From a virus (lineage: Duplodnaviria > Heunggongvirae > Uroviricota > Caudoviricetes), in IMG/VR virus record IMGVR_UViG_2693429779_000010: a stretch of 46,997 nt of DNA; one strand, given 5' to 3'. The notes under the pieces are model-generated. The model searched no databases and had not been told where the DNA came from. It saw nothing but the letters and a program-made list of their open reading frames with translations. The position numbers and the translations under genes were made by a program. Within the stretch, counting starts at the first letter, position 1. Each line of letters begins with the position of its first letter. Shown here one piece after another: positions 12,821-43,890 of this stretch.

Positions 12821-12821
12821 G

Positions 12822-13349: not shown

Positions 13350-13354
13350 AAATT

Positions 13355-13374: not shown

Positions 13375-13377
13375 GTT

Positions 13378-13911: not shown

Positions 13912-13913
13912 CG

Positions 13914-14180: not shown

Positions 14181-14223
14181 TGAGGTGTACTGGCAATAGC
14201 GGACACTACCATTTGTTCTTTTT

Positions 14224-15042
14224 TTAAGCAGCCATCTGATGATATTTTTCCCTGAAGGCTGCCGGGGAGATATTCCCCAGACGAGAGTGACGACGCTGAC
14301 GATTGTAGAAAATCTCAATGTATTCCCGTATTACTGAGATGGCTTCATCCCGGTTATTAAAACGATAGTGGCTCAGGCTCTCATTTTTCAGCGTTCCCCA
14401 GAAGCTTTCCATCGGAGCGTTGTCGTAACAGTTACCTTTACGCGACATTGATGTTTTCAGACCAGACTGCTCCTGTATGACCCGGTAATCGTATGCGCAG
14501 TACTGTGAACCTCGATCAGAGTGGTGGATTAGCCCGGCAGGTGGGCGCTGGCTCCTGAGCGCCATAAACAGGGCTTTACCTGTCAGCTCTTTTGTCATGC
14601 GCTCTCCCATGGCGTAGCCGACAATTTCGCACGTATAAACATCTTTGATGCCAGCGAGGTACAACCATCCCTCCTGTGTGGCAACATACGTCAGGTCCGC
14701 CACCCAGACCTGATTTGGTGCTGTAGGAGCGAACGTCTGGTTCAGCAGATTTGGCGCAACTGGCAGATTGTGGTTCGAGTTCGTAGTCGCTCTGAACTTG
14801 CGTTTCTGCTTACAGCGTAGCCTTAGCTCCTTACGAAGACGTGCCAGTCGGTCACGACCAACGATGATGCCATTCTCTGCCAGCTCCGTCTGGAGCCGCC
14901 GGGTTCCATATGTTTCGCGAGTGCGGATATGTGCCACCTTAATCTCCAGTTTTAGCCGCTCATCACTTTGTTTTCTGTCTGAGGGTTCATGCTGTACCCA
15001 GTTGTAATAACCGCTCCTGGATACACCAAATACCTGACACAT
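14224..15042 (-). CDS. IS600 transposase OrfB
   Basis: 272 aa, identical to other copies. Confidence 0.9.
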   Translation of the reverse strand: MCQVFGVSRSGYYNWVQHEPSDRKQSDERLKLEIKVAHIRTRETYGTRRLQTELAENGIIVGRDRLARLRKELRLRCKQKRKFRATTNSNHNLPVAPNLLNQTFAPTAPNQVWVADLTYVATQEGWLYLAGIKDVYTCEIVGYAMGERMTKELTGKALFMALRSQRPPAGLIHHSDRGSQYCAYDYRVIQEQSGLKTSMSRKGNCYDNAPMESFWGTLKNESLSHYRFNNRDEAISVIREYIEIFYNRQRRHSRLGNISPAAFREKYHQMAA

Positions 15043-15077
15043 CGCTTCAATGGGAAATTGTTGTCGCCATTGTTCGA

Positions 15078-15380
15078 TTAACGCGTATTTTTCAGCGACT
15101 CCTGTGCAAAATACGCTGTTGCTTTTTTTAATATATCTCGCTCAAGGCGAGCTTCATTTAACGCCTTACGCAGTTGCAGAATTTCAGATTCCAGTTCAGC
15201 CACCGTGCGGGAACCAGGAGTACCGAGCCCTTTTCTGGCGGCGGTAACCCATTGTCCTAAAGTGCCTTCAGGAAGAGATAATCGGGAAGCGCCTTCACTG
15301 ATCGAAAGTTGATTTTCAAGAACCGTTCTGACAGCTTCGGCTTTGAACTCTTTAGAGTAACGTTGGGTTTTTCTGCTCAT
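15078..15380 (-). CDS. IS600 OrfA (HTH transposase N-terminal subunit)
   Basis: 100 aa MSRKTQRYSKEFKAEAVRTV...; TTAAAAAAAGC slippery run near the orfA/orfB overlap. Confidence 0.9.
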   Translation of the reverse strand: MSRKTQRYSKEFKAEAVRTVLENQLSISEGASRLSLPEGTLGQWVTAARKGLGTPGSRTVAELESEILQLRKALNEARLERDILKKATAYFAQESLKNTR

Positions 15381-15444
15381 TATTAGCTCCTTCTGATGCC
15401 ATTCTATTTCAGGAAGGAGTGTCCGTTAAACTCAGGCTACCTCA

Positions 15445-15937
15445 AGTCTGTGGATTCAACCTTCTGCGCATAGAGCATCCACTCGGTTAATTTTTGTTTA
15501 TTCTCATCGGAAATGATGCCCAGCTGTAGCTGAGAGTCCCACAGCTGGGTTTTATCCCTGACGAGCTGCAGCAGGCTCTGCTTTTCATTTTCCGCTTGTT
15601 GCCTTTGCTCTTCCTCGGTATAAGTTCGCTTTATCACCGCACCATCTTTGAACATCCAGTTGCCCGAAATATCAGCCCGGCGATTTGCTGTAATATCAGG
15701 CAACTCAACGACACTTAAACCTTCTGGATTAATTGCTGATACATCCTTGTCTATAGCAATAATTATTCCCTCAACTGTGTAAGCCAGTTTTATTGTATCC
15801 TCCTGAAAGTTTTTTAATTCCTCATGCCAATTTTTTCCATCTTCGGACCATAACCAGATAACATCAAAATTCTTTGTTAGCTGGTATTGTTCAACGGTTT
15901 TTGGATTACCTGCGACAATGTTTTTTAAATGCTGCAT
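15445..15937 (-). CDS. Tail fibre assembly protein, cassette D, C-terminus truncated by IS600 copy 2
   Basis: [15 protein letters not shown]...KVESTD then runs into the IS end (LR*); the last ~11 codons seen in tfaB are missing. Confidence 0.75.
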
Positions 15938-15939
15938 GA

Positions 15940-16927
15940 TTATACCTGCGATACGTTATACCATGTTCCGTTAATTAACTTTTGTATTGGTCTGAATACT
16001 GCCGGATCATCACCATCGACTTCACCGATAATACCAAGCCCCGTGATTACATGGCCTGATTTTTCATACATCACGCCTTTCTTCATGGTCTAAACAACTC
16101 GTGTGCCAAGTCTGACATCTCTCACATAGCGGGAATCAAAGTTACCGTAATCCGAGGGATTAACACGTCCCGTAATATTTATGGTTTTATTACTTTGAAT
16201 GCTTCCGGAGACAAAGCGCATAACATGGACGTTATTAGCATAAACATCCAGATTACCATCGCCTTTTTGTTTAAAGCCCGTGTCATTATCACCCAATACA
16301 ATCGAATTACCGCCAAGAGCACTGGATGTTCCGATACCCAGTGCACCATTCAGTTGACCACCAGATAACGGCAGTGCACCAACATCTCCTGCTGAAGGTT
16401 TTCTGGTGGTGTAAAATTCGGACCAGTCGGCTTCAAAACCATAACCATCACGGGCTGAACGATAAAAAATACCGCCATTTTTATAATTAATCCGAAACTG
16501 AGCTGCAGGACAACTTCCTTCTCCCATATAAAAATGAATAATTAACGTTGATGCACCACTAATAGTTGCGTTATAGGCTCCGCTACTCCAGTTCCATCCA
16601 ACTGCTTTATCATTCGCAACGGTGCTTCCTGTTTTCCCTAAGGCAAACGCACCAACATGACTTGCTTTTAATGTGATATCGGAGGAACCATCAAAAGCCA
16701 CATTGCTTATTTTCCTGGCAGTTTTTAATTTTGCAGCTGTAGAAGCATTGCCGGATAGTTCACCAGAAAGGCCACCGCTGAATGTTTGTCGATTAGTCCA
16801 GGTATTCGCTGTACTGAGTAACGGTATTTTCTCCCCGCTTGTGCCGAGTTCTCGTAAACCGAGGTATTCGATAACGGCAGCAACGGTCGATTTCGCAAGA
16901 ATATCCCGCCCGACTTTTGTCAGGGTA
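15940..16927 (-). pseudogene. Tail-fibre 3' portion D (end of constant region, pix-like site, variable domain) with in-frame amber stop; 5' end cut by IS600 copy 3
   Basis: ...TLTKVGRDILAKSTVAAVIEYLGL...DVRLGTRVV-TAG-TMKKGVMYEKSGHVITGL...[11 protein letters not shown]; the TAG at 16090-16092 sits where recalled P2 H has Gln. Confidence 0.7.
16849..16874 (-). other. Degenerate pix-like site inside fibre fragment D (inverted orientation)
   Basis: TTCTCGTAAACC-GA-GGTATTCGATAA; 4 mismatches to the reverse complement of pix-1; encodes VIEYLGL. Confidence 0.55.
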
Positions 16928-16970
16928 TGAGGTGTACTGGCAATAGCGGACACTACCATTTGTTCTTTTT

Positions 16971-17789
16971 TTAAGCAGCCATCTGATGATATTTTTCCCT
17001 GAAGGCTGCCGGGGAGATATTCCCCAGACGAGAGTGACGACGCTGACGATTGTAGAAAATCTCAATGTATTCCCGTATTACTGAGATGGCTTCATCCCGG
17101 TTATTAAAACGATAGTGGCTCAGGCTCTCATTTTTCAGCGTTCCCCAGAAGCTTTCCATCGGAGCGTTGTCGTAACAGTTACCTTTACGCGACATTGATG
17201 TTTTCAGACCAGACTGCTCCTGTATGACCCGGTAATCGTATGCGCAGTACTGTGAACCTCGATCAGAGTGGTGGATTAGCCCGGCAGGTGGGCGCTGGCT
17301 CCTGAGCGCCATAAACAGGGCTTTACCTGTCAGCTCTTTTGTCATGCGCTCTCCCATGGCGTAGCCGACAATTTCGCACGTATAAACATCTTTGATGCCA
17401 GCGAGGTACAACCATCCCTCCTGTGTGGCAACATACGTCAGGTCCGCCACCCAGACCTGATTTGGTGCTGTAGGAGCGAACGTCTGGTTCAGCAGATTTG
17501 GCGCAACTGGCAGATTGTGGTTCGAGTTCGTAGTCGCTCTGAACTTGCGTTTCTGCTTACAGCGTAGCCTTAGCTCCTTACGAAGACGTGCCAGTCGGTC
17601 ACGACCAACGATGATGCCATTCTCTGCCAGCTCCGTCTGGAGCCGCCGGGTTCCATATGTTTCGCGAGTGCGGATATGTGCCACCTTAATCTCCAGTTTT
17701 AGCCGCTCATCACTTTGTTTTCTGTCTGAGGGTTCATGCTGTACCCAGTTGTAATAACCGCTCCTGGATACACCAAATACCTGACACAT
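16971..17789 (-). CDS. IS600 transposase OrfB
   Basis: 272 aa, identical to other copies. Confidence 0.9.
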   Translation of the reverse strand: MCQVFGVSRSGYYNWVQHEPSDRKQSDERLKLEIKVAHIRTRETYGTRRLQTELAENGIIVGRDRLARLRKELRLRCKQKRKFRATTNSNHNLPVAPNLLNQTFAPTAPNQVWVADLTYVATQEGWLYLAGIKDVYTCEIVGYAMGERMTKELTGKALFMALRSQRPPAGLIHHSDRGSQYCAYDYRVIQEQSGLKTSMSRKGNCYDNAPMESFWGTLKNESLSHYRFNNRDEAISVIREYIEIFYNRQRRHSRLGNISPAAFREKYHQMAA

Positions 17790-17824
17790 CGCTTCAATGG
17801 GAAATTGTTGTCGCCATTGTTCGA

Positions 17825-18127
17825 TTAACGCGTATTTTTCAGCGACTCCTGTGCAAAATACGCTGTTGCTTTTTTTAATATATCTCGCTCAAGGCGAGCT
17901 TCATTTAACGCCTTACGCAGTTGCAGAATTTCAGATTCCAGTTCAGCCACCGTGCGGGAACCAGGAGTACCGAGCCCTTTTCTGGCGGCGGTAACCCATT
18001 GTCCTAAAGTGCCTTCAGGAAGAGATAATCGGGAAGCGCCTTCACTGATCGAAAGTTGATTTTCAAGAACCGTTCTGACAGCTTCGGCTTTGAACTCTTT
18101 AGAGTAACGTTGGGTTTTTCTGCTCAT
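17825..18127 (-). CDS. IS600 OrfA
   Basis: 100 aa, identical to copy 2. Confidence 0.9.
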   Translation of the reverse strand: MSRKTQRYSKEFKAEAVRTVLENQLSISEGASRLSLPEGTLGQWVTAARKGLGTPGSRTVAELESEILQLRKALNEARLERDILKKATAYFAQESLKNTR

Positions 18128-18191
18128 TATTAGCTCCTTCTGATGCCATTCTATTTCAGGAAGGAGTGTCCGTTAAACTCAGGCTACCTCA

Positions 18192-20765
18192 CTCTGACCA
18201 GTCAGCTTCAAAGCCATAACCATCACGCGCTGAACGATAAAAAATACCGCCGTTCCTGTAATTCACGCGGAACTGTACAGCAGGGCAGCTCCCCGTATTC
18301 ATATTGAAGTGGAGGATTAATGTCGATGCGCCACCAATGTTTGCGTTATAGACCCCGCTATTCCAGTTCCAGCCAACAGCTTTATCATTTCCGACAGTGC
18401 TTCCTGTTTGCCCTAAAGCAAATGCAGGTTGTTGATTTTTCGTGTTGTAGTCTCGTCGCCAGCCAGGAGCGTAAGCATCACCATGATTAATATAAGTGAA
18501 TTGAGCGTTAGTAATTCCGCCACCGCTGGACGTGCTCGGCGTGGTAACGCGTATGGTCATTGCGCCGCGAGTGCCAATAACTTCCACCACAGCACCTGCA
18601 AGACAAATATTTCCGCAACCTGTATCTGTAATGACCTTATTATTTGCATAAGCCCATGAGCCTTTGCACATCCAGTAAGGATGGTTAAATGCTCCCTGAC
18701 TCTCCAGCCACGAAATAAATTGCGCGGTTGTCCAGACCTGACTATCGCCACCAATATTCAGCCATGAGCTATATGCGCGGCAGGCACCAATATTTTTGGT
18801 GAAGGTATCTTTCCCCGGAATATCTGCGCCGTTCTGGTTTTTCTGTAATGCGCCAGAAGCCTGATTTACCGTTTCCTGTAAACCGAGGTATTCGATAACG
18901 GCGGCAACGGTCGATTTCGCAAGAATATCCCGCCCGACTTTTGTCAGGGTTGCCAGGCTGGCGACATCATTCCCCGTAAAATACGGAAACTTGCCTGCCG
19001 CAGTAGTAAGTCCGGCCAGCGCCGTCAGGGTGGCATCTTTCGGTTGCTTACCCGCAAGCGCGTTAGTCATGGTGGTCGCAAAATTCGGGTCGTTGCCCAG
19101 CGCCGCAGCCAGCTCGTTCAGCGTGTTCAGTGCATCAGGTGACGAATCTACAAGGGCGGCAATCGCAGCCATAACGAAAGCCGTGCTTGCGATTTGGGTA
19201 TTATTCGTTCCCTGTCGCGCAGTTGGTGTTGTTGGCGTTCCGGTCAGTGCAGGACTATTTAAGGGCGCTTTCTTGTTCGTTTCACCCATTACCGCCTTAA
19301 CCGCTTTTGGCGTTGCCGCCAGTGACTCGGAAGTGCTGTTGGTCGCACTGCTGAGCTGTACTATCCCCTTTTTCGTCGTGCTCGCATCCTCCAGCGCCAC
19401 GGCGGATGCAATATCCTCTGCCCGTTTTGCTGCTGTCTCGGCGCGCGTTGCCGCGGATTCAGCAGCAACTTTGCTCTGAGATGCAGCCGTCGCACTGCCT
19501 GCCGCCTCTGATGCTTTCGTTGTTGCTGTCGTGGCACTACCTTTCGCTGCTGACGCTTGTCTGGTCGCCTCATCTTTTGAAGCAGACGCAGATGATGCCG
19601 ATGACGCCGCTGAACTGGCTGACGATGCGGCTGCTGCCTTAGAGGAAGCAGCATTGTCTGCTGAAGTCTTTGCATTTGTTTCAGAGGTTTTTGCTGCAGA
19701 AGCAGACCTCGCTGCTGCAGTGGCTTGCTCAGTGGCTTTGCCAGCCTTCGTTGTGGCTGTTGAAGCGGATGATGCGGCGCTTTCTGCCGATTTTCCGGCG
19801 GCGGTGGCACTGGCTGAGGCCTGCCCGGCACTTGTTGACGCGGCGCTGGCAGACGACGCAGCCGCTGTTTTTGAGCCTGCCGCAGCTGAGGCACTCTGTC
19901 CCGCTGCCGTTTCAGAAGACCTGGCGTTCGTCTCGGACGTTTTGGCCGCCTTCGCAGAATTTGCAGCCGCCGTCGCCGAGGAAGCTGCGCTACTGGCGCT
20001 TGATGATGCGTTCGTTTCTGATGATTTTGCCGCCTCTTTTGAAGCCGACGCATCCCGGGCTGAGGTGGCAGCTTCTGACGCTTTCGTGGTCGCGGTGGAT
20101 GCAGAAGTGGCTGCTGATTGTTGTGACGCTGCCGCATTCGTTTCTAACGTTTTCGCCGCACCGGCACTGGTAGCCGCCGCGCTTTTTGAGGACTCTGCAG
20201 CGGCAGCACTTTTTGAGGCTTCAGTGGCCTTTGTTGATGCCGTTCCTGCGCTGGAAGACGCTGACTGAGCCGACGAAGCGGCCTGTCCGGCTGACGTGCT
20301 GGCTGCACGTGCTGAATCTGCAGCATCAGTCGCATGGGTTGCCGCCTCACGGGCTGATGTGCTGGCATCGCTGGCTGATTTCTTCGCGGCTGCCGTGTTC
20401 TGTGCCACCGCGGACGCGTTACGCGCCACCTCTTCCACCATCAGCTCAAAACGGCGCAGTGCCTCCGGACGGGCATCATCCTCCGTCATGGCACCGAGAA
20501 AATCATTCAGCGTACCGGGTCGGGAATCTTCATACACGGTGATGGTCCCGGCATGTGACGGCGGGAATCCTTCCACCAACAGAATAACGCTGTACTGACC
20601 GTACTCAACGTCCATGCTGTAACGCCCGGCTTCATCCGGATTTTCTGAGGCCAGCGTGTTCACCACCACCGTGGTGCTGTTACGTTTTGCTTTCAGCTGG
20701 ATTGTGCAGTTCTGTACCGGTTTTCCTGTGCCGTCTTTCAGTACACCTGAAATCTTTACTGCCAT
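18192..20765 (-). CDS. stf: Lambda Stf-like side tail fibre (N-terminal anchor, Ala/Ser/Thr-rich shaft, constant region, 5' part of variable domain B); 3' end interrupted by IS600 copy 3
   Basis: MAVKISGVLKDGTGKPVQNCTIQLKAKRNSTTVVVNT...GRYSMDVEYGQYSVIL... matches recalled lambda Stf N-terminus; ORF ends ...GFEADWSE at the IS600 terminal TGA. ATG at 20763-20765. Confidence 0.85.
18873..18898 (-). other. pix-type crossover site inside stf at the constant/variable boundary (inverted relative to sites 1 and 2)
   Basis: TTCCTGTAAACC-GA-GGTATTCGATAA; 2 mismatches to the reverse complement of pix-1, with complementary GA/TC core; encodes ...VIEYLGLQE. Confidence 0.75.
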
Positions 20766-30591: not shown

Positions 30592-32343
30592 ATGATTCAG
30601 GACGCTTTTGTGCGCCAGCGTGCGCGGCAACTTTACTGGCAGGGTTATCCGCCCGCAGAAATATCACGTCTGATGGGAATAAACCCGAACACGATTTATG
30701 CGTGGAAAAAACGCGACCAGTGGGATGAAACGCCACCCGTGCAGCGTGTCACGCAGTCCATCGATGCGCGCCTCATCCAGCTTACTGAAAAACAGAATAA
30801 AACAGGTGGTGACTTTAAGGAAATAGACCTGCTGACCCGGCAGCTTAAAAAACTGCATGATGGCCAGCCGGATGCGACGGCCACAGGAAAGAAAGGCCGG
30901 GCGAAAAAACTCAAAAATCATTTCACGCCGGAACAGATTGCCGCACTGCGGGAAAAAATCATCAGCAGGCTGGAGTGGCATCAGCGGGGCTGGTTTGACT
31001 CCCTGACGCTTTGCAGGGAAGCCGGGATACGTAACAGGATGATCCTGAAATCCCGACAGATTGGGGCGACCTGGTATTTTGCACAGGAAGCACTGCTGAT
31101 GGCGCTGCGTGACGATGTGGCACAACCTTACCAGCGTAACCAGATTTTTTTGTCTGCGTCGCGTCGTCAGGCGTTCCAGTTTAAAAGCATTATTCAGAAG
31201 GCCGCGGCTGAAGTCGATGTGGAGCTGAAAGGGGGCGATAAAATCATCCTCTCCAACGGCGCAGAGATGCATTTTCTCGGCACTTCTGCTGCGACGGCGC
31301 AATCTTACACGGGCAATTTTTATTTTGATGAATTTTTCTGGGTCAGTCGCTTTGCTGAACTGCGCAAGGTGGCTGGCGCTATGGCAACCCTCAGCGGACT
31401 GCGGCGCACCTGCTTCTCCACGCCATCCACCGAAACGCACGAGGCATACGCCTACTGGAACGGCGACCGCTGGAACGAGAAAAAGGCCGCGCATAAACGC
31501 CAGCGTTTTTCTGTGGACTGGAAAACGCTGCATAACGGGCTTATCTGCCCTGACCGGACGTGGCGGCAAATTGTCACGCTGGAAGATGTGGTTAATCACG
31601 GCTGGAAACACACCGATATTGATGAAATTCGTGATGAAAACACCGAAGACGAGTTCCGCAATCTCTATATGTGTGAGTTTGTCCGCGAAGGGGAATCGGC
31701 ATTTAACCTGAATATCCTGATTGGCTGCGGTGTTGACGGATACGACGACTGGAAAGACTGGAAACCCTTTGCCCCCCGCCCGATGGGGAATCGTCCGGTA
31801 TGGATTGGGTATGACGCAAACGGCAGCAGTGGTAACGGCGACAGCGGCGCTGTGTCCGTGGTGGTTCCTCCGGCTGTTCCTGGTGGTCGTTTCAGAACGG
31901 TGGAGACGCGACGCGTTCAGGGGCTGGAATTTGAAGAGCAGGCCAGAGTTATTGAAGAGTTCACGTATCGCTACAACGTGGAACACATCGGCATTGATGC
32001 GACGGGAGGGCACGGGGATGCCGTCTATCAGATAGTGAAACGGTTTTTTCCCGCCGCCATCCCTTACACCTTCACGCTGTCATCAAAACGGTCGCTGGTA
32101 CTGAAAATGCTGCAAATAATGCGTGCCGGGCGGTGGGAATACGATCGCGCCGAACGCGAGCTGGTTGCGGCCTTTAACGCCGTGCGTAAGGTGAAAACAC
32201 CGGGCGGTTTTATCACTTACGAAACGGACCGCGCGAGGGGGATCAGCCACGGCGACCTTGCGTGGGCAACCATGCTTGCTGTCATTAACGAACCGATTGG
32301 CGGCGAAGGAGAAAACGAGCGTTTCACGGTTATGGAGTTCTGA
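30592..32343 (+). CDS. P: Terminase large (ATPase) subunit (P2 gpP homolog)
   Basis: 583 aa; divergent from O and followed by portal gene as in P2. Confidence 0.85.
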   Translation: MIQDAFVRQRARQLYWQGYPPAEISRLMGINPNTIYAWKKRDQWDETPPVQRVTQSIDARLIQLTEKQNKTGGDFKEIDLLTRQLKKLHDGQPDATATGKKGRAKKLKNHFTPEQIAALREKIISRLEWHQRGWFDSLTLCREAGIRNRMILKSRQIGATWYFAQEALLMALRDDVAQPYQRNQIFLSASRRQAFQFKSIIQKAAAEVDVELKGGDKIILSNGAEMHFLGTSAATAQSYTGNFYFDEFFWVSRFAELRKVAGAMATLSGLRRTCFSTPSTETHEAYAYWNGDRWNEKKAAHKRQRFSVDWKTLHNGLICPDRTWRQIVTLEDVVNHGWKHTDIDEIRDENTEDEFRNLYMCEFVREGESAFNLNILIGCGVDGYDDWKDWKPFAPRPMGNRPVWIGYDANGSSGNGDSGAVSVVVPPAVPGGRFRTVETRRVQGLEFEEQARVIEEFTYRYNVEHIGIDATGGHGDAVYQIVKRFFPAAIPYTFTLSSKRSLVLKMLQIMRAGRWEYDRAERELVAAFNAVRKVKTPGGFITYETDRARGISHGDLAWATMLAVINEPIGGEGENERFTVMEF

Positions 32344-33389
32344 TGAGCAGAAAAAATAAAAAAGTGCGCATGAGTTCACGCATTGATCTCGCTGATGCGC
32401 TCAGGAAAGAATCGTCGCTCAGTGCATTCACATTTGATGGTCCTTACCGCCTGACCGGGCATGACCTGCTGGACAATATGTACTGTGCTGATAACGGGCG
32501 GTGGTATGAAACCCCGGTGGACTGGTACGGTCTGGCAAGAGCTGCCCGGCAAACGTCCTGGCATCAGTCTGCGCTTTACTTTAAGCGCAATGTATTGCTC
32601 GGCTGCTATATTCCGCACCCGCTGCTTTCCCGGCAGGATTTCTCGGCGCTGGCGCTGGACTGGTTTGTGTTCGGTAACGCATTCCTTGAGCTTCGGAGCA
32701 ATATGCTCGGCGAACCGCTTAAATTACGGCACGCCCTGGCGAAATACATGCGACGCGGAAGCGATCTTGAATCATGGTGGTATGTGCAGGATGGCAAGGA
32801 TGCGTTTCAGTTTCGTCCTGGCAAAGTGTGCCACCTGATGAATCCGGATATTAACCAGGAAATCTACGGCATGCCGGAATATCTTGGCGCATTACTCTCG
32901 GCCAGCCTTTCTCATTCGGCGGACATGTTCAGAAAACTGTACTACGACAACGGATCCCACGCCGGGTGCATCATCTACATCGGTGCAGCGCAGGTAAACC
33001 GCGAAAGCATGGACTCCCTGAAAGAAACGCTACAGGGGGCACGTGGTGGTGGTGCGTTTAAAAACGTGCTCATTCATGCGCCCAACGGGGGCAAAGAGGG
33101 GGTGCAAATTTTGCCGTTCCAGCAGATCACCGCAAAGGATGAGTTCATGAATGTTAAGGCGGCATCCCGTGATGATGTGCTGGCTGCGCACCGCGTTCCG
33201 CCGCAACTGATGGGGGCGATGCCGGGCGAAAAAAGTGCGTTTGGTGATGTGGAGAAGGCCGCGCGGGTTTACGCAATTAACGAGCTGATGCCCGTCATGG
33301 AGGCCATGAAGCACATCAATGACTGGCTTGGCGAAGAGGTGATCCGCTTTAACCCTTACGCACTGTTAGACACCCAGCCCACATCCTGA
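32343..33389 (+). CDS. Q: Portal protein (P2 gpQ homolog)
   Basis: 348 aa; start overlaps P stop. Confidence 0.85.
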   Translation: MSRKNKKVRMSSRIDLADALRKESSLSAFTFDGPYRLTGHDLLDNMYCADNGRWYETPVDWYGLARAARQTSWHQSALYFKRNVLLGCYIPHPLLSRQDFSALALDWFVFGNAFLELRSNMLGEPLKLRHALAKYMRRGSDLESWWYVQDGKDAFQFRPGKVCHLMNPDINQEIYGMPEYLGALLSASLSHSADMFRKLYYDNGSHAGCIIYIGAAQVNRESMDSLKETLQGARGGGAFKNVLIHAPNGGKEGVQILPFQQITAKDEFMNVKAASRDDVLAAHRVPPQLMGAMPGEKSAFGDVEKAARVYAINELMPVMEAMKHINDWLGEEVIRFNPYALLDTQPTS

Positions 33390-33860
33390 CGCGCTTCGCT
33401 TGTCTGCTGCTTCGCCGGGGCATAAAAAATTTATGCCCCGACTCTCCAGCTCCTGTATCAGTCAGATAATTTCACGACGCTTTCCTGCTGATTGCCATCA
33501 TCGACAGTCAGACTCTTACGCAATCCCACCTCGTTGACTGCATATTCTCGCCGTCTCAGTGCGATTTTGACGGCCTTACCTTTCACCCCATCAAATCAAA
33601 AGCCCTCACGTCTTTTTCACGCTCAGCGTGAGAAATACAGCCATTCTGTTGTATCTCTGCGACATCGTTCAGGGAATGCTATTTACCCCCTGAAACGCGG
33701 GCTGTTCCCCCGTCACCTGCGCGCAGAAAAAACGCGTTTTTTTGTGCATGCACGGATCCTTGACGGATCCAGCCGCCACGCGGGCCGGAAGGGCAAAAAG
33801 TCGTTCAAAAAAATTGTGCAAATTTGTGCACTATTGTGCATTTATAAAATCAACTAAAAA
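33390..33860. other. Non-coding region after the portal gene; candidate cos/packaging region
   Basis: No credible ORF; hairpin GGGGCATAAA-aaa-TTTATGCCCC (33417-33439), palindrome A6CGCGT7 (33725-33740), direct repeat CGGATCC x2, TTGTGCA x4 (three at 10-bp phasing, 33814-33840), GC-rich GCCGCCACGCGGGCCGGAAGGGC. P2 places cos next to Q. Confidence 0.35.
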
Positions 33861-33880: not shown

Positions 33881-34066
33881 CTACCACTCGATCGGCACGT
33901 AGTCATTAAGTTCCGGAGACCAATTGCACTTTTCACATCTGTGTTTTCCATTCTGGCAGATACATAAACGATAACGGCCACAATGCGGGCACCCATTTTC
34001 ACCATTATCATAATCACCGAGCGACCATTCCTGCATAAGCAGCTCTTCTTCATCATCATTTAGCAT
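33881..34066 (-). CDS. Small Cys-rich (zinc-ribbon-like) protein, unknown function
   Basis: 61 aa with CPHC-x5-CIC-x6-CEKC; AAGGGGG RBS 5 nt before ATG; last gene of the parM-led cluster. Confidence 0.5.
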   Translation of the reverse strand: MLNDDEEELLMQEWSLGDYDNGENGCPHCGRYRLCICQNGKHRCEKCNWSPELNDYVPIEW

Positions 34067-34080
34067 TAATCCCCCTTGAG

Positions 34081-34320
34081 CTATTTACTCTTCTCGGCCC
34101 TCAAAATCATACGAGAACCATCATCCAGCTCCCAATTAATTTCACCGCCTTCTGCCATGACTAGATGCCAAACGAGTTGAGCGGCCTCGTTGGTTACATC
34201 GCGACCGCGATCATTTCCTACGCGGCGTTTTGTTCCGTCTCCTAAGTCACGCATTTTTGCCAATACGATGGTTTTTGATAGCGGTGAAAAACCAAGCTGT
34301 AGTCGTGCTGAATTACTCAC
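34081..34320 (-). CDS. Hypothetical protein (79 aa)
   Basis: GTG start overlaps the stop of the upstream 174-aa ORF (GTGA), suggesting translational coupling. Confidence 0.45.
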   Translation of the reverse strand: MSNSARLQLGFSPLSKTIVLAKMRDLGDGTKRRVGNDRGRDVTNEAAQLVWHLVMAEGGEINWELDDGSRMILRAEKSK

Positions 34321-34841
34321 TGGCTGCCCCCTTTGTACTGTGTTAACTCTTCCTGCTCCTGCATCATGCGATTGACCTGAACGCGTGTGCGTCGAACGGC
34401 AAAATTAAATTGAAACATGAGCCGGAACATTTCTGATGCTTCCGTGTGAGCATCACGGATAGGTGACAGGCGGTACAGTTCTGCCTCCGTAGCTTGTTGA
34501 ATCAATGACAGATCAAATTGAAGTGCGGGTCTGGTACATTTTGCACATCTGGCAGCAAGCTCCGGTATTAGTCTCTTAACGAAGGTGTTTTGCACCGCTT
34601 TGTTGATTTGTGTCTGCATCCAAATCGCAAATTTCAGCGAACGCATAAGTTTGATAGCCTCGGGCAGCGGCAGATAGATCATGCTGGTAGATTTGGGTGG
34701 TTGGTGAACCATCTTCACGGATACGCGATTTCGCAGCGTTCGGAAAATCGTGTTCCCAACAACAGCTTCTACGGATACAGGACAGGGAGCCAGACCAGCC
34801 CGCAGTGCTTCTTTCATTAGCATGTATTCGTATTTTTTCAT
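34317..34841 (-). CDS. Hypothetical protein (174 aa)
   Basis: GAGGAA RBS 6-7 nt before ATG; no recognisable motif. Confidence 0.5.
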   Translation of the reverse strand: MKKYEYMLMKEALRAGLAPCPVSVEAVVGNTIFRTLRNRVSVKMVHQPPKSTSMIYLPLPEAIKLMRSLKFAIWMQTQINKAVQNTFVKRLIPELAARCAKCTRPALQFDLSLIQQATEAELYRLSPIRDAHTEASEMFRLMFQFNFAVRRTRVQVNRMMQEQEELTQYKGGSQ

Positions 34842-34901
34842 CGTGTTTTCCTCGTGCGGGGCGACAGTGCACCCCGATAAAATTAAAAGCCGTCAAATTC
34901 G

Positions 34902-35213
34902 TCATTCAGGAAATAATGCCCGGATATTCCCTGCTATCTGACTGGTTATCTGTGCGGTTGGTACTGGCTGTGGCACGGGGCGTTCTGTCCTGGTTTGTGT
35001 CACCGATAACGCCTCATCGTCAGCCCATGCAGCCAGTCGGTAAGCCTCTGCTGGATTCATTTTCAGAAGTGCCAGCCCGGCCAGAAAAGCCACGCGTTGG
35101 CCGCTTTTGCGGGCTTCTGGTGTAAGGCTGCCCAGCCAGGCGCATGCTTCGCTTTCGTTCTTGACGGCCGCAGGCTTCAGATAGAAACTTATCCGTCTGG
35201 TTGGTGTCGTCAT
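34902..35213 (-). CDS. parR: ParR/StbB-like centromere-binding protein (putative)
   Basis: Internal ATG at 35211-35213 with AAGGAG RBS, 4 nt after parM stop; MTTPTRRISFYLKP...RVAFLAGLAL... parallels recalled R1 ParR (RRTIAFKLNP...ALTAGLAL). Confidence 0.55.
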   Translation of the reverse strand: MTTPTRRISFYLKPAAVKNESEACAWLGSLTPEARKSGQRVAFLAGLALLKMNPAEAYRLAAWADDEALSVTQTRTERPVPQPVPTAQITSQIAGNIRALFPE

Positions 35214-35217
35214 TGGT

Positions 35218-36177
35218 TTACTCCTTGTCCATTGCGTACAGCCCATTAACCAGAGCAAACTGTGGCACCCCGTCCGCGATGAAAGTCGCATTAACTCCGC
35301 AGGCTTCGCGGATAGCGGGTGCCACAATCTCCGCCCCTCCACCGACAACCATCACCCGCCCGTAACCCGAAAAACCCGCCAGCGCGCGGATCACGCGTTG
35401 TTTCAGTGTTTCTTCCTTTTCACGAATAACCGCCATCAGGCTGGCGTAATGCGCGTCATTGTGGATGTGCTGGCGCAGCCAGGCTTCATCATGGCGATGT
35501 TCGATAATGGTATTGGCGATGTGGTGACTGGTGCGCATACCGTTAGTGGCCATCACCGACAGTACGGCATCGGCCATCAGAGAAACGCCTACGTGTGGAT
35601 CGCAAAACACCTGGCTGATACCTGCCAGTTGCCCCTGAACCTTTGCCACATCCAGCGTGGTTCCGCCCAAATCCACAATCAGCAGGGATTCAAACGGACT
35701 CATGTCAGCCAGTGCCTTAAAGCCAGCCGGAATGGATTCAGGCATAACCCGCACGTTACGGATAGTGAATGCTTCGCCGTTCTGGTACTCCACCGGGCGC
35801 ATAACGTTCGCTTTTTTGCGGTTGATGTTGGCCATGTCCGGCTGTGCGTTTGTGTCGAAATACTCGCTCAGTGGCAGGGGGACAACCACATCCACCTCCT
35901 GTGGCGTGATGCCTGATTTGACCAGCGCGTGATGAATGGCAATGACATTTACATCGCTGTACTGGTATTGCGTGTCGGTTGTCTGGACAAAGCGATCGCT
36001 GACCGGATCAAAACCATAGCGCACGCCATCAAGCATGTAGTTCGCGGGCTGCATGCCACCGAACGGCGCAGACCATTCCGACTTGAAGCTGTTCGGGCTG
36101 ATGGCGTTGCGGCGTTCGCCGTTCTCAGTCCATGCCAGCTTGATGTTGGTGGAGCCGTCGTCGATACAAATTTTCAT
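35218..36177 (-). CDS. parM: ParM/StbA-like actin-type ATPase
   Basis: MKICIDDGSTNIKLAW...ISPNSFK...YQYSDVNVIAIHHAL...VMPESIPAGF...LLIVDLGGTTLDV...GISQV...VMVVGGGAEIV...LVNGLYAM matches recalled R1 ParM along its full length. Confidence 0.8.
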   Translation of the reverse strand: MKICIDDGSTNIKLAWTENGERRNAISPNSFKSEWSAPFGGMQPANYMLDGVRYGFDPVSDRFVQTTDTQYQYSDVNVIAIHHALVKSGITPQEVDVVVPLPLSEYFDTNAQPDMANINRKKANVMRPVEYQNGEAFTIRNVRVMPESIPAGFKALADMSPFESLLIVDLGGTTLDVAKVQGQLAGISQVFCDPHVGVSLMADAVLSVMATNGMRTSHHIANTIIEHRHDEAWLRQHIHNDAHYASLMAVIREKEETLKQRVIRALAGFSGYGRVMVVGGGAEIVAPAIREACGVNATFIADGVPQFALVNGLYAMDKE

Positions 36178-36210
36178 GTCGCTTTTCCTTATGTTGATTA
36201 ATTAATCGTT

Positions 36211-36325
36211 TACGGGATTCTGAAATCCCGTTTTTGCCTGTTTTGTGCGCGCTTCATATATCGCTGCGCGTTTTTTGCTCATTTACGGGATTCGTGAGTC
36301 CCGTTTCTGTCTGTTTTTTGTTTCC
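36211..36325. repeat. Two ~40-bp direct repeats (70-bp period), each with a dyad ACGGGAnTC...TCCCGT and a T-run; candidate parC-like site or regulatory hairpins
   Basis: 36211-36249 TTTACGGGATTCTGAAATCCCGTTTTTGCCTGTTTTGTG and 36281-36325 ATTTACGGGATTCGTGAGTCCCGTTTCTGTCTGTTTTTTGTTTCC; first is between A stop and parM start, second is inside the last codons of A. Confidence 0.6.
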
Positions 36326-39076
36326 ACTGGTCAGGCCACCCCGCAGCAGGTCTGCTTTGCGGCGGGCGCGTTCAGTGGTTTCACTGATTCTCTGTGCGTG
36401 CTCTGCGTCGCGGATGGCGCGCAGCATGTCAGAAAGCACGGTAACGGGTGTTTTCATGGTGTTCTGGTCCTGCTGAAGTGTGGATGCCAGGCGTGCGGCG
36501 GCTTCAGGGTCTGATGCCCCCAGCTGTGTCAGATAGCTGGCGACCGGGTTATGGCGGATCTCCGTGCTGCTTACGCCATGATTACGGCTCAGGCGCTGCC
36601 AGAGCTGCGTGATTCGGCTGTCCGGGCGGGTATCCGGTTTGCGTACAATTTCAAATCCCTGCGGTGCAATGATGCTGCCGTCAACGTACAGACTGCCGCC
36701 CCGTAACAGGTGCTGCATCTGTTGTTCACCGATATGCAGGCCGAGAGATTCAGCAGACTCCCGCCATTCTTTAGCGAGTAATTCGTGGTTATCAGGCAAA
36801 GGCCGCTGCTGTTTGCGGCTCTGTGTCCAGCTCTGCATTTCATCACTGCTGTTTTTTGCCTGTTTGTCACGAAGCGAACGCATCAGCGCCCGGCGTTCGT
36901 GCCGTTTCAGTGAGCGCATCCATTCATCCACATCAACGCCGTCAGGGAGCTGCGGCCACGGTGCTGGCCGTTCTTCCGGCTGTTCTGTCCCGTTGTTGTC
37001 CGTTTCCTGTACACGGGGACAGTTATTGCCACGAGTCCAAGGGGCGGCAGGGCCGCCCTGAAGGTCAAAACCATTTTCGCGGGCGCTGTCTTCCGCTTCC
37101 GGTTTGCGTCTTACCAGCTTCCAGTTATCCGGATGCGTGCACACACGGGAGGATTCCCCGATGAGTGGTGACCAGATCCCGTAAATCTGTACGCTCTGTT
37201 CGCCGTAATCGTTCAGCTCATCGGCGAGGTCGTAGGCGGTGCGAATCAGGTAGTCTTTGCGTGGAACAAGTACGCCGCCCTGTTTCTCTATGTAGGTGGC
37301 AAAACATCCGGCATCAGCGGCGGCAAGAACCGCATCCATTGCGTCATCCTTCAGCCGTTGCGGGCCTTCCGGGTTGCGTGCCATCTGGCTGGCAAGGCGG
37401 CGCAGTTCACGCCATACCTGGCGGGAGGGGATGCCAAAGAACTGGAACTGGCGGACCCGGTGAAGGCGCGCCCAGCCGATGGCGCGTTCCACGCTCTCGG
37501 CCATTGATTTTCCGGTTTCGTGGTCAACGCGTGGCTTGCCCGTTTTCGGGTCGATGCCATCCACGGCGCGGCTGTCCAGGTTTTTCCCGATGTAGGTGGC
37601 GATGTAGCTGGTTGGCGTGCCTTTTGAGCCGTCTACATACTCCGCCTTAAAGCGCGGAGTTATGTCATCGCCCAGCTCGTGACGATCTTCCTGAATGGCA
37701 ATATCGCGGGTGTGGGACACAATGGTGTCGATTTCTTCCGGATGAGCAAAGACCATCATATGCCAGTGCACGGTGCCGTCATGGTGAGGCTCCGCCGTGC
37801 GGATGCCATACCAGCGCAGGCCGTCGCGGTTCAGTTTTTTGCGGACCGTCGCAAAAAACGTGTTAACCAGGTAATCGCTGGAGTCGCGCATTGTGGCCCC
37901 GTTCCATTTGGGATTCGGATGACCGTTCTCCGTTGTGGCGTGGTATTTTGACGGGCAGGTGACAGTCAGAAACACCGCTTTGTCGCCACGGGCTTCGGCC
38001 AGAAGTTCCAGCCCCTTCATGGTGGCCATCATTTCTGCCTTACGGTGAACCGGGTTACTTACTCCCGCGTAATACACCGTCTCGAGATCAATCGTGAACC
38101 CGTCTTCATTTTCCAGCATGAAACTTTTCAGGAAATCGCGTGTTTTCTCGCGCTGTGCGCGAAACTCGCTTAACGCGTCCTGGCTCAGATAGGGCGATGT
38201 TTTTCTGGAAACCAGACAGGCGGCGCGAAGTTGTTCTTCTCTCCACTCGCAACGTAACAGCCACAGTTTGCGTTTCCACCATTCCGCACAGGTCAGGCGA
38301 AGGATTGCGCCCGGCAGCAGTTCTGTGTCCGGTTCGTGCCTCCGGTCTTTGTCTGTTGTCAGTGCGTCATAATGCGGAGGCATGGCGTGTAAGTGTAACG
38401 CCATGCGGGCCAGCATCTGATACGCCTTCAGCGTTACATCCATGGTCAGCTCGCCATCAGTCGCGCCAAAACCATCGCAGAGTTTTTCGAAGGTGCTGCT
38501 GAACATCGCCGCCGTCATGGTGGCCAGCGTCTGTATCTGGTGTTTGTTGAGTTGCGGCAGGTAAAGCAAATCGTCCAGGCGTTCACGTCCGGCAAGGGAG
38601 CGATAACCCGGTGTCAGCCAGTGTCCGTCAGTGCGATCCAGACGTTCGAATATTTTGCGCAGGGTTCCGCGTGCATAGCGTTCCGCCTGCCAGCTCTTTT
38701 TGCCTTTCCGGCGATCGGCTTCCTGTTTTTTGCGCAGGAAGGAGAGGTGGCGAATAAGCGGATCGCGCAGATAGGACGGCAGCAGGCGCAGCGAGGCCAT
38801 GGCTTCATCCACCGCGCCGCGTGCCTGTTTTCTGGCGTCTCCTGCCAGTGTGATGGTTTTGTCCTGTTTTTCCTGTGCGTCCAGGCTTTTATTAATCAGG
38901 TTGCCCAGTGGCGTGGCGGAGAACGCCGCATCAGCCATTTCCTGGCGGCGCTCGTTCTCTGCCCGGTGGGCATCCAGCCAGGAGGAAAGCGCGGATTCAG
39001 GAGCGGGGATCCCCGTTCCTTCACGCCCCACTGCGTGGCGCGGTTGTTGCCAGTCCCTGATGTACTCTGCCGTCAT
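36254..39076 (-). CDS. A: Replication initiation protein (P2 gpA-type rolling-circle endonuclease)
   Basis: 940-aa ORF with HUH-like motif TVHWHMMVF and nearby Tyr-rich region; located between early genes and the variable locus as in P2; longer than recalled P2 A (761 aa). Confidence 0.85.
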   Translation of the reverse strand: MTAEYIRDWQQPRHAVGREGTGIPAPESALSSWLDAHRAENERRQEMADAAFSATPLGNLINKSLDAQEKQDKTITLAGDARKQARGAVDEAMASLRLLPSYLRDPLIRHLSFLRKKQEADRRKGKKSWQAERYARGTLRKIFERLDRTDGHWLTPGYRSLAGRERLDDLLYLPQLNKHQIQTLATMTAAMFSSTFEKLCDGFGATDGELTMDVTLKAYQMLARMALHLHAMPPHYDALTTDKDRRHEPDTELLPGAILRLTCAEWWKRKLWLLRCEWREEQLRAACLVSRKTSPYLSQDALSEFRAQREKTRDFLKSFMLENEDGFTIDLETVYYAGVSNPVHRKAEMMATMKGLELLAEARGDKAVFLTVTCPSKYHATTENGHPNPKWNGATMRDSSDYLVNTFFATVRKKLNRDGLRWYGIRTAEPHHDGTVHWHMMVFAHPEEIDTIVSHTRDIAIQEDRHELGDDITPRFKAEYVDGSKGTPTSYIATYIGKNLDSRAVDGIDPKTGKPRVDHETGKSMAESVERAIGWARLHRVRQFQFFGIPSRQVWRELRRLASQMARNPEGPQRLKDDAMDAVLAAADAGCFATYIEKQGGVLVPRKDYLIRTAYDLADELNDYGEQSVQIYGIWSPLIGESSRVCTHPDNWKLVRRKPEAEDSARENGFDLQGGPAAPWTRGNNCPRVQETDNNGTEQPEERPAPWPQLPDGVDVDEWMRSLKRHERRALMRSLRDKQAKNSSDEMQSWTQSRKQQRPLPDNHELLAKEWRESAESLGLHIGEQQMQHLLRGGSLYVDGSIIAPQGFEIVRKPDTRPDSRITQLWQRLSRNHGVSSTEIRHNPVASYLTQLGASDPEAAARLASTLQQDQNTMKTPVTVLSDMLRAIRDAEHAQRISETTERARRKADLLRGGLTSGNKKQTETGLTNPVNEQKTRSDI

Positions 39077-41510: not shown

Positions 41511-41822
41511 ATGTCAATAGAGATATCAAAGAAGCTAAAAGCAATTCGAGAATCTGAGGGGCTTAGTCAGGCAAAGTTCGCGGATTCAATAGGTATTGCG
41601 GTTGGTACGGTTAAGCAATACGAGACTGGTATTCGAGGTGTGGGAACGGAGGTTTTACTGAAAATCACAATGCACCCGGAATTTAAAAAATACACTACGT
41701 GGTTGATGAGTAACGAAACAAATGAGGCTGCTGGGCAGATCAGTCCTTCTCTCTCCCCTGATGGGCCAGAAAACACATCGTCTTCTCAAAAATCCCGCAA
41801 GACTGGCACACAGCCCGGCTAA
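41511..41822 (+). CDS. C: Immunity repressor (P2 C-type HTH protein)
   Basis: Internal ATG 41511 (AGGTG upstream); ~103 aa; HTH ...LSQAKFADSIGIAVGTVKQYETG...; directly upstream of int. Confidence 0.7.
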   Translation: MSIEISKKLKAIRESEGLSQAKFADSIGIAVGTVKQYETGIRGVGTEVLLKITMHPEFKKYTTWLMSNETNEAAGQISPSLSPDGPENTSSSQKSRKTGTQPG

Positions 41823-41871
41823 TCATGGAACGCTGGGGGCATGGTGGTCTTGTAACGCTGGGGCTTCACGA

Positions 41872-42849
41872 ATGAGCATAAAATCAATTCCGGGAGGGTA
41901 TCTTCTTGACATGCGTCCTGAGGGGCGTAAAGGCAAACGCATTCGCAAAAAATTTAAAACGAAATCGGATGCAGTTTTATATGAGCGGTGGGTGCTGGCG
42001 CAACAGCATAACAATGAGTGGAAAGGAAACTCCATTGATCGCCGTCCGCTGTCAGTGCTTATTGACTTGTGGTGGAAATACCACGGCCAGCTAATGAAGT
42101 CAGGGCATAACACGCGCCTTAAATTGCTGCGCTTGAGTGAGGCAATGGATGACCCGTGCGTGCATAAACTTAATACAACGATGCTCACCGAGCTACGTGT
42201 GTCCAGGATAGAGCAGGGGATACAGCCCAGCACCATAAATCGAGAGATTGGGGCGTTAAGCGCGATGTTTACCGCACTCATCTCATCCGGCCATTTTCTT
42301 AACGATAACCCCGTTCAAGGCCTTAAAGGAATGAAGGTTAACGAGCGTGAAATGGGATATCTGAGTAAGTCTGAATGTGTTCAGTTGCTGGATGCACTGG
42401 CTGAAAATCCCGATGAACGGCTGGCCGTCGAAATCCTTCTGTCGACCGGGGCGCGATGGGGCGAGGTAGCGGCACTGGAGCAGCGCCGTGTTCTTCATTG
42501 TCGAATCACTTTTTCAAAAACGAAGAACAGCAAAAACCGTACCGTTCCTATTTCTGAAAGCCTGTTTGAAAAGATCAAAAAACGGGGCGGGAAACTGGTG
42601 TTTCCGACGCTGGATTATTCATTGGTTCGCGATGTCATCAAAACGGTCGCACCTGATGTTCCTGACGGCCAGGCTGTTCATGCGCTGCGCCACACCTTCG
42701 CCAGTCATTTCATGATGAACGGCGGCAATATTCTGACGCTCCAGAAAATTCTGGGGCACGCAAAGATTCAGACAACGATGATTTATGCCCATCTTGCGCC
42801 GGATTACTTGCAGGATGCGGTGAGGTTTAATCCCTTGGGAGGAATGTAA
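41872..42849 (+). CDS. int: Tyrosine integrase
   Basis: Start at ATG 41872 after repressor stop; C-terminal catalytic signature ...HALRHTFASHFMMNGGNILTLQKILGHAKIQTTMIYAHL. Confidence 0.9.
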   Translation: MSIKSIPGGYLLDMRPEGRKGKRIRKKFKTKSDAVLYERWVLAQQHNNEWKGNSIDRRPLSVLIDLWWKYHGQLMKSGHNTRLKLLRLSEAMDDPCVHKLNTTMLTELRVSRIEQGIQPSTINREIGALSAMFTALISSGHFLNDNPVQGLKGMKVNEREMGYLSKSECVQLLDALAENPDERLAVEILLSTGARWGEVAALEQRRVLHCRITFSKTKNSKNRTVPISESLFEKIKKRGGKLVFPTLDYSLVRDVIKTVAPDVPDGQAVHALRHTFASHFMMNGGNILTLQKILGHAKIQTTMIYAHLAPDYLQDAVRFNPLGGM

Positions 42850-42851: not shown

Positions 42852-43352
42852 ATGGAAATAAAAAAACCTACAAAAAAAGAGTTATATGACTATTTACTAT
42901 CGAAATATATAGAAGATAAATGCAAAGAAGAAGCTGATGAAATCAATAAGAAGTCGATGAGTCGTGTCAAAAAACATAAAGAGCGGCTGATGGAGATTAC
43001 GCCAGAAATCTTCTTCCGTTTCTTGTCTGAGAAGGGGGTCTCCAGTGTCTGCCCTTCATGTGGATCGTCGCGATTATCTGTTCCAGAAAGTATGGATCTT
43101 TGCTGGGATAAAAATAAGAAACCAGAAAATTTTAACAATCTACCCCTGGAGGAACAGAGTGAGTTAATTAAAGAGAACATAAAGCATTATGTATCTTATG
43201 CTTTTTTGGGTGATGTTAAGAGCATACCTGATATGCGCAAAACTTATTACACGCTGCATTGCCTGAATTGTGGTTACCTGAGCCTTTATCGTACGTCTGC
43301 GGTGCTGAAGTGGTTGGAGAAAGACAAAGCGCAGGATGGTGATAATGGGTAA
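42852..43352 (+). CDS. AT-rich moron: zinc-ribbon protein of unknown function
   Basis: 166 aa, Lys/Glu-rich, CPSCGS and HCLNCGY motifs ~70 aa apart; markedly lower GC than neighbours; starts 3 nt after int stop. Confidence 0.55.
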   Translation: MEIKKPTKKELYDYLLSKYIEDKCKEEADEINKKSMSRVKKHKERLMEITPEIFFRFLSEKGVSSVCPSCGSSRLSVPESMDLCWDKNKKPENFNNLPLEEQSELIKENIKHYVSYAFLGDVKSIPDMRKTYYTLHCLNCGYLSLYRTSAVLKWLEKDKAQDGDNG

Positions 43353-43890
43353 TGTAGCAAGAAATCTTTTCGGTAATTCAGCAGGTAGTGTGTCGCATTC
43401 TGAGCGTGATGTGCTTTATCATGGTGGCGATGGCGGCAGTAGTGGAGGCGGAATGTCAGATAAACTTGAAAGGCGAATTGAGCGGCTCGAAGGTGATTTA
43501 TCGCTAACAAGAAACGACCTTGCGACGCTTGCTGAACGCACTACAAACCTCTCAACTAAAGCCGATGTTGGTGAGGTGAAAGGTGAACTCAAAGCAGACA
43601 TAGCACATCTGAAAGGTGATCTTGAATGCGATATTGCGAATCTGAAAGGTGAGCTTAAATCTGATACAGCTAACCTGAAAGAGCAGCTCAAATCAGACAT
43701 TAACAGCCTGAAGGGTGAGCTTACCGAAGCGATGGATAAACGCTTTGACAAGATTATGGATGAGATGAATCGGCGGTTTGACAAGGTTGATGATAATACG
43801 AAGTGGCGTTGGAGTGGCATTATTGTGCCAGTGTGCACAACCATTTTCACAGCGGCGGTTGCTGTATTTGTTGCTAAATTTGTTGGCTGA
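43336..43890 (+). CDS. AT-rich moron: coiled-coil repeat protein with C-terminal transmembrane anchor
   Basis: Gly/Ser-rich N-terminus, ~11-residue repeats (LKGELKADIAHLKGDLECDIANLKGELKSDTANLKEQLKSDINSLKGEL), C-terminal hydrophobic WSGIIVPVCTTIFTAAVAVFVAKFVG; overlaps upstream gene; start uncertain. Confidence 0.55.
   Translation: MVIMGNVARNLFGNSAGSVSHSERDVLYHGGDGGSSGGGMSDKLERRIERLEGDLSLTRNDLATLAERTTNLSTKADVGEVKGELKADIAHLKGDLECDIANLKGELKSDTANLKEQLKSDINSLKGELTEAMDKRFDKIMDEMNRRFDKVDDNTKWRWSGIIVPVCTTIFTAAVAVFVAKFVG

Follow-up and report, generated by a model that had tools for sequence, protein, structure and literature searches.

The P2-like prophage analysed here carries, next to its replication gene gpA, two genes (parM and parR) encoding relatives of the actin-type partition proteins of plasmids, and this pair is a conserved part of the phage backbone. 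The prophage is contained in a window of 46,997 nucleotides (the whole stretch of DNA analysed; IMG/VR virus record IMGVR_UViG_2693429779_000010), is integrated in its host, Escherichia coli, and is of the P88 type (genus Xuanwuvirus, Peduoviridae). Together with the DNA upstream of parM, the two genes (34902 to ~36325) probably constitute a complete type II (ParMRC-like) segregation module that acts on circular phage genomes. Five co-oriented open reading frames (ORFs) lie between gpA and the portal gene, all on the minus strand and exactly where a first-pass annotation, made from the sequence alone, had placed them; that annotation had taken parM, parR, and the ORFs of 174, 79, and 61 aa for a single cluster. 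They come apart into the conserved parMR pair and three unrelated cargo genes, as judged from GC (guanine plus cytosine) content, from the exchange of cargo between loci, and from the rarity of the combination (3 of 80 loci).

The larger of the two genes, parM (35218-36177, minus strand), encodes an actin-fold partition ATPase of 319 aa. Its earlier designation as ParM-like, and that of its neighbor as ParR-like, was borne out by profile and structure searches. ParM matched PF06406 (StbA_N; E 5e-81) and PF21523 (ParM C-terminal domain; E 1e-68), both above the curated Pfam cut-offs, as well as phrog_691 ("partition protein") in PHROG. The match to the structures of ParM from plasmid R1 (PDB 1mwk; E 6e-92) spanned residues 2-316, of which about half are identical, and the phosphate-1, E147/148, DLGGTTLD, and GGGAE motifs aligned residue for residue. 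In 14 ParMs of the phage clade, with identities down to 53%, the motifs DDGSTNxK, PES, DLGGTTLD, and GGGAE were invariant. The ratio of nonsynonymous to synonymous polymorphism (pN/pS) was 0.054 among 69 alleles; parM is under strong purifying selection.

The gene directly downstream, parR (34902-35213, minus strand), encodes a predicted centromere-binding adaptor of 103 aa. This length is counted from the ATG at 35213, 4 nt past the parM stop, which is the start used in the annotations of relatives; the program-made ORF (34902-35348) begins at a TTG. ParR matched PF10784 ("plasmid stability protein"; E 5e-23) and phrog_2515 ("partition protein"; E 7e-56), and by these sequence criteria the assignment of the pair as ParM and ParR is strongly supported. 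Among solved structures, a profile of ParR relatives matched best, if weakly (E 1.3e-3), to ParR of pB171 ("StbB", PDB 2jd3), the aligned part (residues 9-74) being the DNA-binding domain. The loci compared yielded 48 distinct ParR sequences. Among those from P88-like phages, the N-terminal strand MTTPTRRISFYLKP (TRRISFYLKP) is conserved with few exceptions, the C-terminal tail (K)NIxxxFP(E/D/K/Q) is kept across alleles, and the linker between them is hypervariable. ParRs from more distant genera have xRR(I/V)SFYLxP at the N terminus and, in Hafnia, Enterobacter, and Plesiomonas, NAxxLFP at the C terminus, so that the head-linker-tail pattern persists in relatives with 37-52% ParR identity. 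This is what an adaptor of the expected kind should look like, with a DNA-binding head, a flexible linker, and a tail predicted to bind ParM.

In the 80 IMG/VR loci, ParR falls into two allele groups, 84-100% versus about 50-55% identical to the window copy, beside a ParM that is ~99% identical. The genes of the second group (L003, L019, L021, L023, L034, L044, L048, L050, L051, L058, and L062, and further L069-L072, L075, L077, L080, L082, L085, and L091, with parR at ~5965-6276) adjoin a 99%-identical ParM and unchanged upstream palindromes (see below), and the divergence between the groups is concentrated in surface residues of helices 1-2 and in the linker. This dimorphism might mark incompatibility groups. 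Comparing ParR alleles with palindromes for co-variation was uninformative, as both groups share one N-terminal strand and cannot be told apart by their palindromes.

Upstream of parM, two copies of a 42-nt direct repeat are found 73 bp apart, each with a palindrome CGGGA-N8-TCCCG at its center. On the gene strand (minus), the distal palindrome reads ACGGGACTCACGAATCCCGT (36285..36304) and lies within the last ~24 codons of gpA (36254-39076; PF05840, E 7e-131); the proximal one, ACGGGATTTCAGAATCCCGT (36212..36231, minus strand), lies in the 76-bp spacer between gpA and parM. Exact CGGGA-N8-TCCCG sites occur three times in the whole window, and two of these are the pair upstream of parM. In all P88-like loci, the palindromes are conserved, their arms varying less than their centers among 52 distinct upstream sequences, and the corresponding loci of Hafnia (L007) and Plesiomonas (L006) have, in the equivalent position, two GGGA-N8-(T/A)CCC sites with a spacing of 72 bp. 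In one further locus (L094), the module is preceded by a different gene and both palindromes are intergenic; homology to the window starts at ~36325, just upstream of the distal palindrome. The palindromes therefore belong to the par module, and the possibility that they are part of gpA or of its origin was rejected.

R1 parC consists of two blocks of five 11-bp iterons. R1-type iteron arrays were not found in the region upstream of parM, and we propose the two 20-bp palindromes, 73 bp apart, as a candidate centromere (parC) that would differ from the R1 type. A putative ParR-controlled promoter of parM (36197..36224, minus strand) would have its -35 element (TTCAGA) within the proximal palindrome, followed by a 16-nt spacer and the -10 element ATTAAT; a Shine-Dalgarno sequence, AAGGAA, can be read at 36190-36185 (minus strand). 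The ATTAATCAA block of this promoter is conserved in the Hafnia and Plesiomonas loci, and the promoter was not called by a consensus scan. By analogy with R1, it may be a weak promoter across the proximal palindrome and subject to autoregulation by ParR.

The end of gpA itself is also of interest. Its last ~24 codons (36254-36325) overlap the par module and encode the distal palindrome, and the same DNA in L094 (2483-2665) is intergenic, behind an extra ORF of 151 aa. Thus, the C-terminal tail of gpA appears to be mosaic and is probably dispensable.

That parMR is backbone is evident from its distribution. ParM was 98-100% identical in all 80 P88-like loci from IMG/VR, the scan of viral contigs with ParM having retained only loci in this range; the scan of genome contigs gave only three relatives, with 97-99% identity, and the more diverged genomic contexts were taken from look-ups of single proteins. 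These revealed that prophages of Plesiomonas and Hafnia (ParM identity of 62%), Serratia (58%), and Enterobacter (54%) keep the order gpA-parM-parR-[variable genes]-(ogr)-portal. ParMs with an identity of ≤50% that were looked up reside in an integrated plasmid and in an integrative and conjugative element (ICE). The GC content of parMR (53-57%) is like that of the backbone, and that of the three small ORFs is 46-48%. Because of the conservation in IMG/VR, the synteny in four other genera, and the GC content, and because variation starts downstream of parR, parMR is not variable cargo; it is a conserved backbone element of P88-like and related P2-like phages and the fixed flank of a hotspot. 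In the simplest reading, a P2-like lineage acquired the module once, long ago, and has passed it on vertically under selection since then.

The parC-parM-parR stretch is present, with 90-99% nucleotide identity, in 1308 of 5426 (24%) complete E. coli genomes, and all but two of its 1456 copies there (1454) are chromosomal. Carriers of a P88-like prophage with the module include O157:H7 and ST131. Isolated phages with the module include P88 and PhiSM, and their genes are annotated as ParM or partition protein in GenBank and RefSeq. About a quarter of the P2-like phages of E. coli have been reported to carry a putative partition system, with plasmid maintenance as its suggested role (Rousset et al. 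2022, PMC9122126). The presence of parMR in P88-like phages is common, annotated, and described in the literature, that is, already known, and the earlier view of the pair as unexpected in such a prophage does not hold. One 97%-identical parM in a P88-like context (L004, NZ_JBQPOM010000071.1) comes from a contig of 226 kb whose label, Vagococcus sp., is that of a Firmicute; contamination or mislabelling of the assembly is the likeliest reason for this host label.

Variation begins beyond parR. The cos-proximal interval between gpA and gpQ is a known defense hotspot, which in P2 contains old and tin (Rousset et al. 2022, PMC9122126; NAR 2026, PMC13586616), and the first-pass annotation had rightly recognized the A-to-cos interval as such. 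Its description of all five genes as variable cargo was, upon comparison of the A-Q interval, appropriate for orf174, orf79, and orf61 but not for the constant parMR. The published surveys of the hotspot likewise count parMR as its content (PMC9122126, PMC13586616), whereas here it emerges as the fixed flank. Between parR and the portal gene, the interval ranges from 995 to 4174 bp and contains many unrelated gene sets (~68 loci). Cargo of sister loci matched models of defense proteins (IetA, with E 4e-89, IetS, AbiLi/AbiLii, PDC-M04A, RmrA-like, and PDC-M11A), and the Serratia and Enterobacter relatives encode HicAB and a KAP nucleoside triphosphatase (NTPase) there. Unlike this cargo, the small ORFs of the window match no known defense model; PADLOC gave no match for any of the five window proteins. 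The exact orf174-orf79-orf61 cassette is present in three of the 80 IMG/VR loci (L012, L014, and L015). All three genes lie in the gpA-gpQ position and differ between near-identical phages, as hotspot cargo does and parMR does not.

The largest of them, orf174 (34317-34841, minus strand), is an orphan without a match in Pfam, PHROG, NCBIfam, or PADLOC. Its family comprises eight clusters at 90% and three at 50% identity in two large protein libraries (1.84 billion proteins), and an exhaustive profile search returned three clusters only, no remote homology being gained. Wherever relatives were located, they lay between gpA and the portal gene of P2-like prophages, in one case without parMR; the AlphaFold model is unusable (predicted local distance difference test [pLDDT] score of 49.5). 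The product of orf79 (34081-34320, minus strand) is a small protein of the DUF7446 family (PF24233, E 1e-16; phrog_1578, E 2e-32). Its GTG start overlaps the orf174 stop by 4 nt, by which arrangement it appears to be translationally coupled to orf174. Counterparts of the orf79 DNA (34090-34335), 80-92% identical and usually adjoining ead/Ea22-like genes, are found in lambdoid phages, in a Yersinia phage, and in plasmids of roughly 48-93 kb; orf79 behaves like a small moron moving between temperate elements that are unrelated. The small protein encoded by orf61 (33881-34066, minus strand) is rich in cysteine, as noted before, with six such residues, and is zinc-ribbon-like; it matched phrog_24897 (function unknown; E 3e-46) and, below the Pfam cut-off, Zn_ribbon_IS1595 (E 5e-3). 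Taken together, the three small ORFs appear to be separate, horizontally acquired hotspot cargo. They are candidates for a role in defense or counter-defense, for which their location is the sole hint. A single five-gene operon system was rejected, because the cargo swaps independently of parMR and differs from it in GC content.

If the module functions as its components suggest, dimers of ParR would bind the two CGGGA-N8-TCCCG palindromes upstream of parM, thereby repressing the embedded promoter and building the centromere complex. Through its conserved C-terminal tail, ParR would then capture the ends of ATP-dependent ParM filaments, the growth of which would push apart ParR-bound circular phage genomes. 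The likely substrate is the extrachromosomal circle, as it would exist after infection or excision and during rolling-circle replication driven by gpA. Replication of P2 yields monomeric circles, which are the substrate for packaging and are plasmid-like objects. The module may serve to spread or position genomes that are replicating or not yet integrated, and would be expressed together with the early replication operon. A consensus scan found no terminator-like site on the minus strand between the gpA stop and the parM start, which makes this co-expression plausible. More tentatively, and with somewhat less than even confidence, a widespread, integrating, rolling-circle-replicating P2-like lineage may use a plasmid-derived ParMRC with a minimal two-palindrome centromere on its own monomeric circles, either for lytic replication and packaging or for a facultative plasmid state before integration. 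It would then offer an accessible model, in E. coli, of phage genomes being positioned by a cytoskeleton, with the hypervariable linker alleles of ParR defining incompatibility or specificity groups among co-resident prophages.

Three known systems are instructive in this respect. ParMRC of R1/NR1 (StbA/StbB/parC), the paradigm of type II partition, has a ParM with which that of the phage aligns over its full length, the catalytic motifs being kept, the same gene order with parR directly downstream, a ParR of the same PF10784 family, and repeats upstream around the likely promoter. It differs in serving a low-copy plasmid, whereas the window module resides in an integrating, rolling-circle-replicating P2-like phage. 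BLAST searches with the phage ParR found no true plasmid ParR, the sequences being too diverged. The srpMRC system of SXT/R391 ICEs stabilizes the transient circular replicating form of these elements, with a centromere of no more than four short repeats, direct and inverted (Carraro et al. 2015, PMC4489591); a small centromere would therefore not be without precedent. Like the window module, srpMRC is a type II partition system in a normally integrated element, but its host is an ICE and not a phage, and SrpM and SrpR are only distantly related to ParMR of R1, whereas the phage ParM is a close relative. In the AlpAC/alpS system of the Corynebacterium prophage CGP3, the genes for an actin-like filament protein and a co-transcribed DNA-binding adaptor, which binds its own upstream region, are induced early after excision and are required for efficient replication of CGP3 DNA (Donovan et al. 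2015, PMC4446434). CGP3 is, as here, an integrated prophage with a filament protein and an adaptor; the actin-like family, gene order, host, and phage type differ. By analogy, AlpAC is the favored functional model for the window module.

The main rival to a module that acts on transient phage circles is stable plasmid lysogeny, in which parMR would keep a P88-like phage as a low-copy plasmid, for instance, if attB is missing or already taken. This idea has been published (Rousset et al. 2022, PMC9122126), parMR is a genuine partition system of the plasmid type, and the sole other isolated phage with this type of ParM is the P1-like phage-plasmid D6 (47.5% identity). Moreover, one finished E. 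coli assembly includes, under the name of plasmid pZ1323PEC0009-2, a complete circular P88-like genome of 34,461 bp with integrase, cox, gpA, and parMR (L092, NZ_CP148288.1). This circle may have been an episome or have arisen by induction; as a lone record, however, it could simply be induced phage DNA, and almost every copy of the module in complete E. coli genomes is chromosomal. The window copy, too, is integrated by btuC with its integrase intact. No plasmid-type Rep was present among the proteins scanned, which covered part of the prophage, gpA being the only replication function seen, and gpA, which belongs to the lytic early operon, initiates rolling-circle replication in cis. For the window copy, neither the extrachromosomal state nor, in the proteins scanned, the plasmid replicon typical of phage-plasmids in the style of P1, N15, and SSU5 was found. 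A facultative plasmid lysogen is, therefore, an unlikely explanation for the module. Even less can be said for a decaying, functionless relic of recombination with a plasmid. The lack of the module in most P2-like phages and the sporadic ParM fragments in databases, truncated or fused, speak for a relic, but this reading is effectively refuted by the selection on parM (pN/pS of 0.054), by ORFs and motifs that are intact across genera, and by synteny that is held down to 54% ParM identity.

Several observations weigh against the proposed segregation module and its centromere. P2 itself manages without parMR, as do most of its relatives, and why a lytic genome that is circular only transiently should need partition is not obvious. 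The literature yielded no functional study of a parMR module in any P2-like phage, and papers on enterohemorrhagic E. coli (EHEC) that mention CP-933T contained nothing on partition genes. The AlphaFold model of ParR is poor (pLDDT of 54.6) and draws the N-terminal strand as a helix, so that the ribbon-helix-helix fold was not confirmed. With two palindromes, the candidate centromere has far fewer sites than R1 parC with its ten iterons; the plasmid and ICE relatives of ParM and ParR that were fetched have R1-like ATCTC iteron arrays instead, and in the relatives from Serratia and Enterobacter the repeats are arranged differently. Finally, on the plus strand each palindrome with its T-run scores as an intrinsic terminator (8-bp stem, 4-nt loop, and T-rich tail). 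The palindromes might accordingly be plus-strand terminators that block antisense transcription into gpA, or hairpins at mRNA 3′ ends, with parC being elsewhere or absent; the consensus scan called both of them terminator-like on that strand, and an A-tract precedes each copy on the gene strand. However, late plus-strand transcription already has another hairpin in its path (33416-33440), L091-type variants alter the arms without compensation, and in Plesiomonas the sites have weak stems, although GGGA-N8-CCC spacing and 72-bp phasing are preserved. A pair of sites that overlaps the likely promoter, with seven helical turns between its members, is typical of ParR operators, and a role as terminators alone appears rather doubtful.

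The first-pass annotation had also raised the possibility of a filament system repurposed for exclusion or defense. Such a system might, for instance, interfere with plasmids or related phages that enter the cell, or form a five-gene system together with the small ORFs. A proven defense hotspot lies alongside, and diverse ParR alleles beside a near-invariant ParM could, in principle, reflect diversifying interactions. The variation of ParR is, however, in the linker and not in the predicted DNA-binding strand or ParM-binding tail, the hallmarks of partition appear to be retained, and none of the five proteins is matched by PADLOC. parMR is kept whatever cargo follows and is accompanied by the small ORFs in just three of the 80 IMG/VR loci, and GC content also sets these ORFs apart from it. 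We consider repurposing for defense very improbable, and a segregation module remains the preferred reading.

The remaining layout of the region is compact. From parM to orf61, the genes are spaced by 4 nt (parM-parR) and 60 nt (parR-orf174), overlap by 4 nt (orf174-orf79), and are then 14 nt apart (orf79-orf61). This minus-strand unit would end, before the cos-proximal spacer, at a terminator-like hairpin with a T-run (33816-33831, minus strand) that was called by the consensus scan. The interval is flanked by the portal gene (32343-33389), with the terminase upstream, and the hairpin at 33416-33440, directly after the portal gene, is bidirectional. At the other end of the prophage, an intact tyrosine integrase gene (41722-42849) is followed by two small ORFs and then by host btuC/btuE/btuD, the integration site adjoining the btuCED genes. 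The interval between integrase and host genes is a minor P2 hotspot according to a recent survey (NAR 2026, PMC13586616). The two ORFs located there, between the integrase and the btuC junction (166 and 184 aa; 42852-43890), gave one weak PADLOC match (DUF3800_VII, E 5e-3) for the former and weak coiled-coil-type matches for the latter.

Apart from the par module, the tail-fiber region (7000-19000) contains direct repeats (10117/14181/16928 and 9356/13420) that are 100% identical over at least 300 nt, and also inverted repeats with the Gin/Cin-type crossover sequence TTCCTGTAAACCGAGGT. A serine invertase is encoded at 7078-7683 (PF00239, E 2e-50, and HTH_7). The sequence is suggestive of an invertible, multi-cassette shufflon for host range in which cassettes have been duplicated.

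What is added here to the known occurrence of parMR in P88-like phages is the distinction between backbone and cargo, the evidence from selection and synteny, the anatomy of the ParR alleles, and a specific candidate centromere that is not of the R1 type. For annotation, parMR marks the fixed edge of the P2-type defense hotspot and should not be counted as its cargo. About one in four complete E. coli genomes harbors an integrating phage that keeps this plasmid partition machine under strong selection. Should the module act on phage circles, actin-like positioning of genomes, as in CGP3 and ICEs, would extend to a tractable coliphage.

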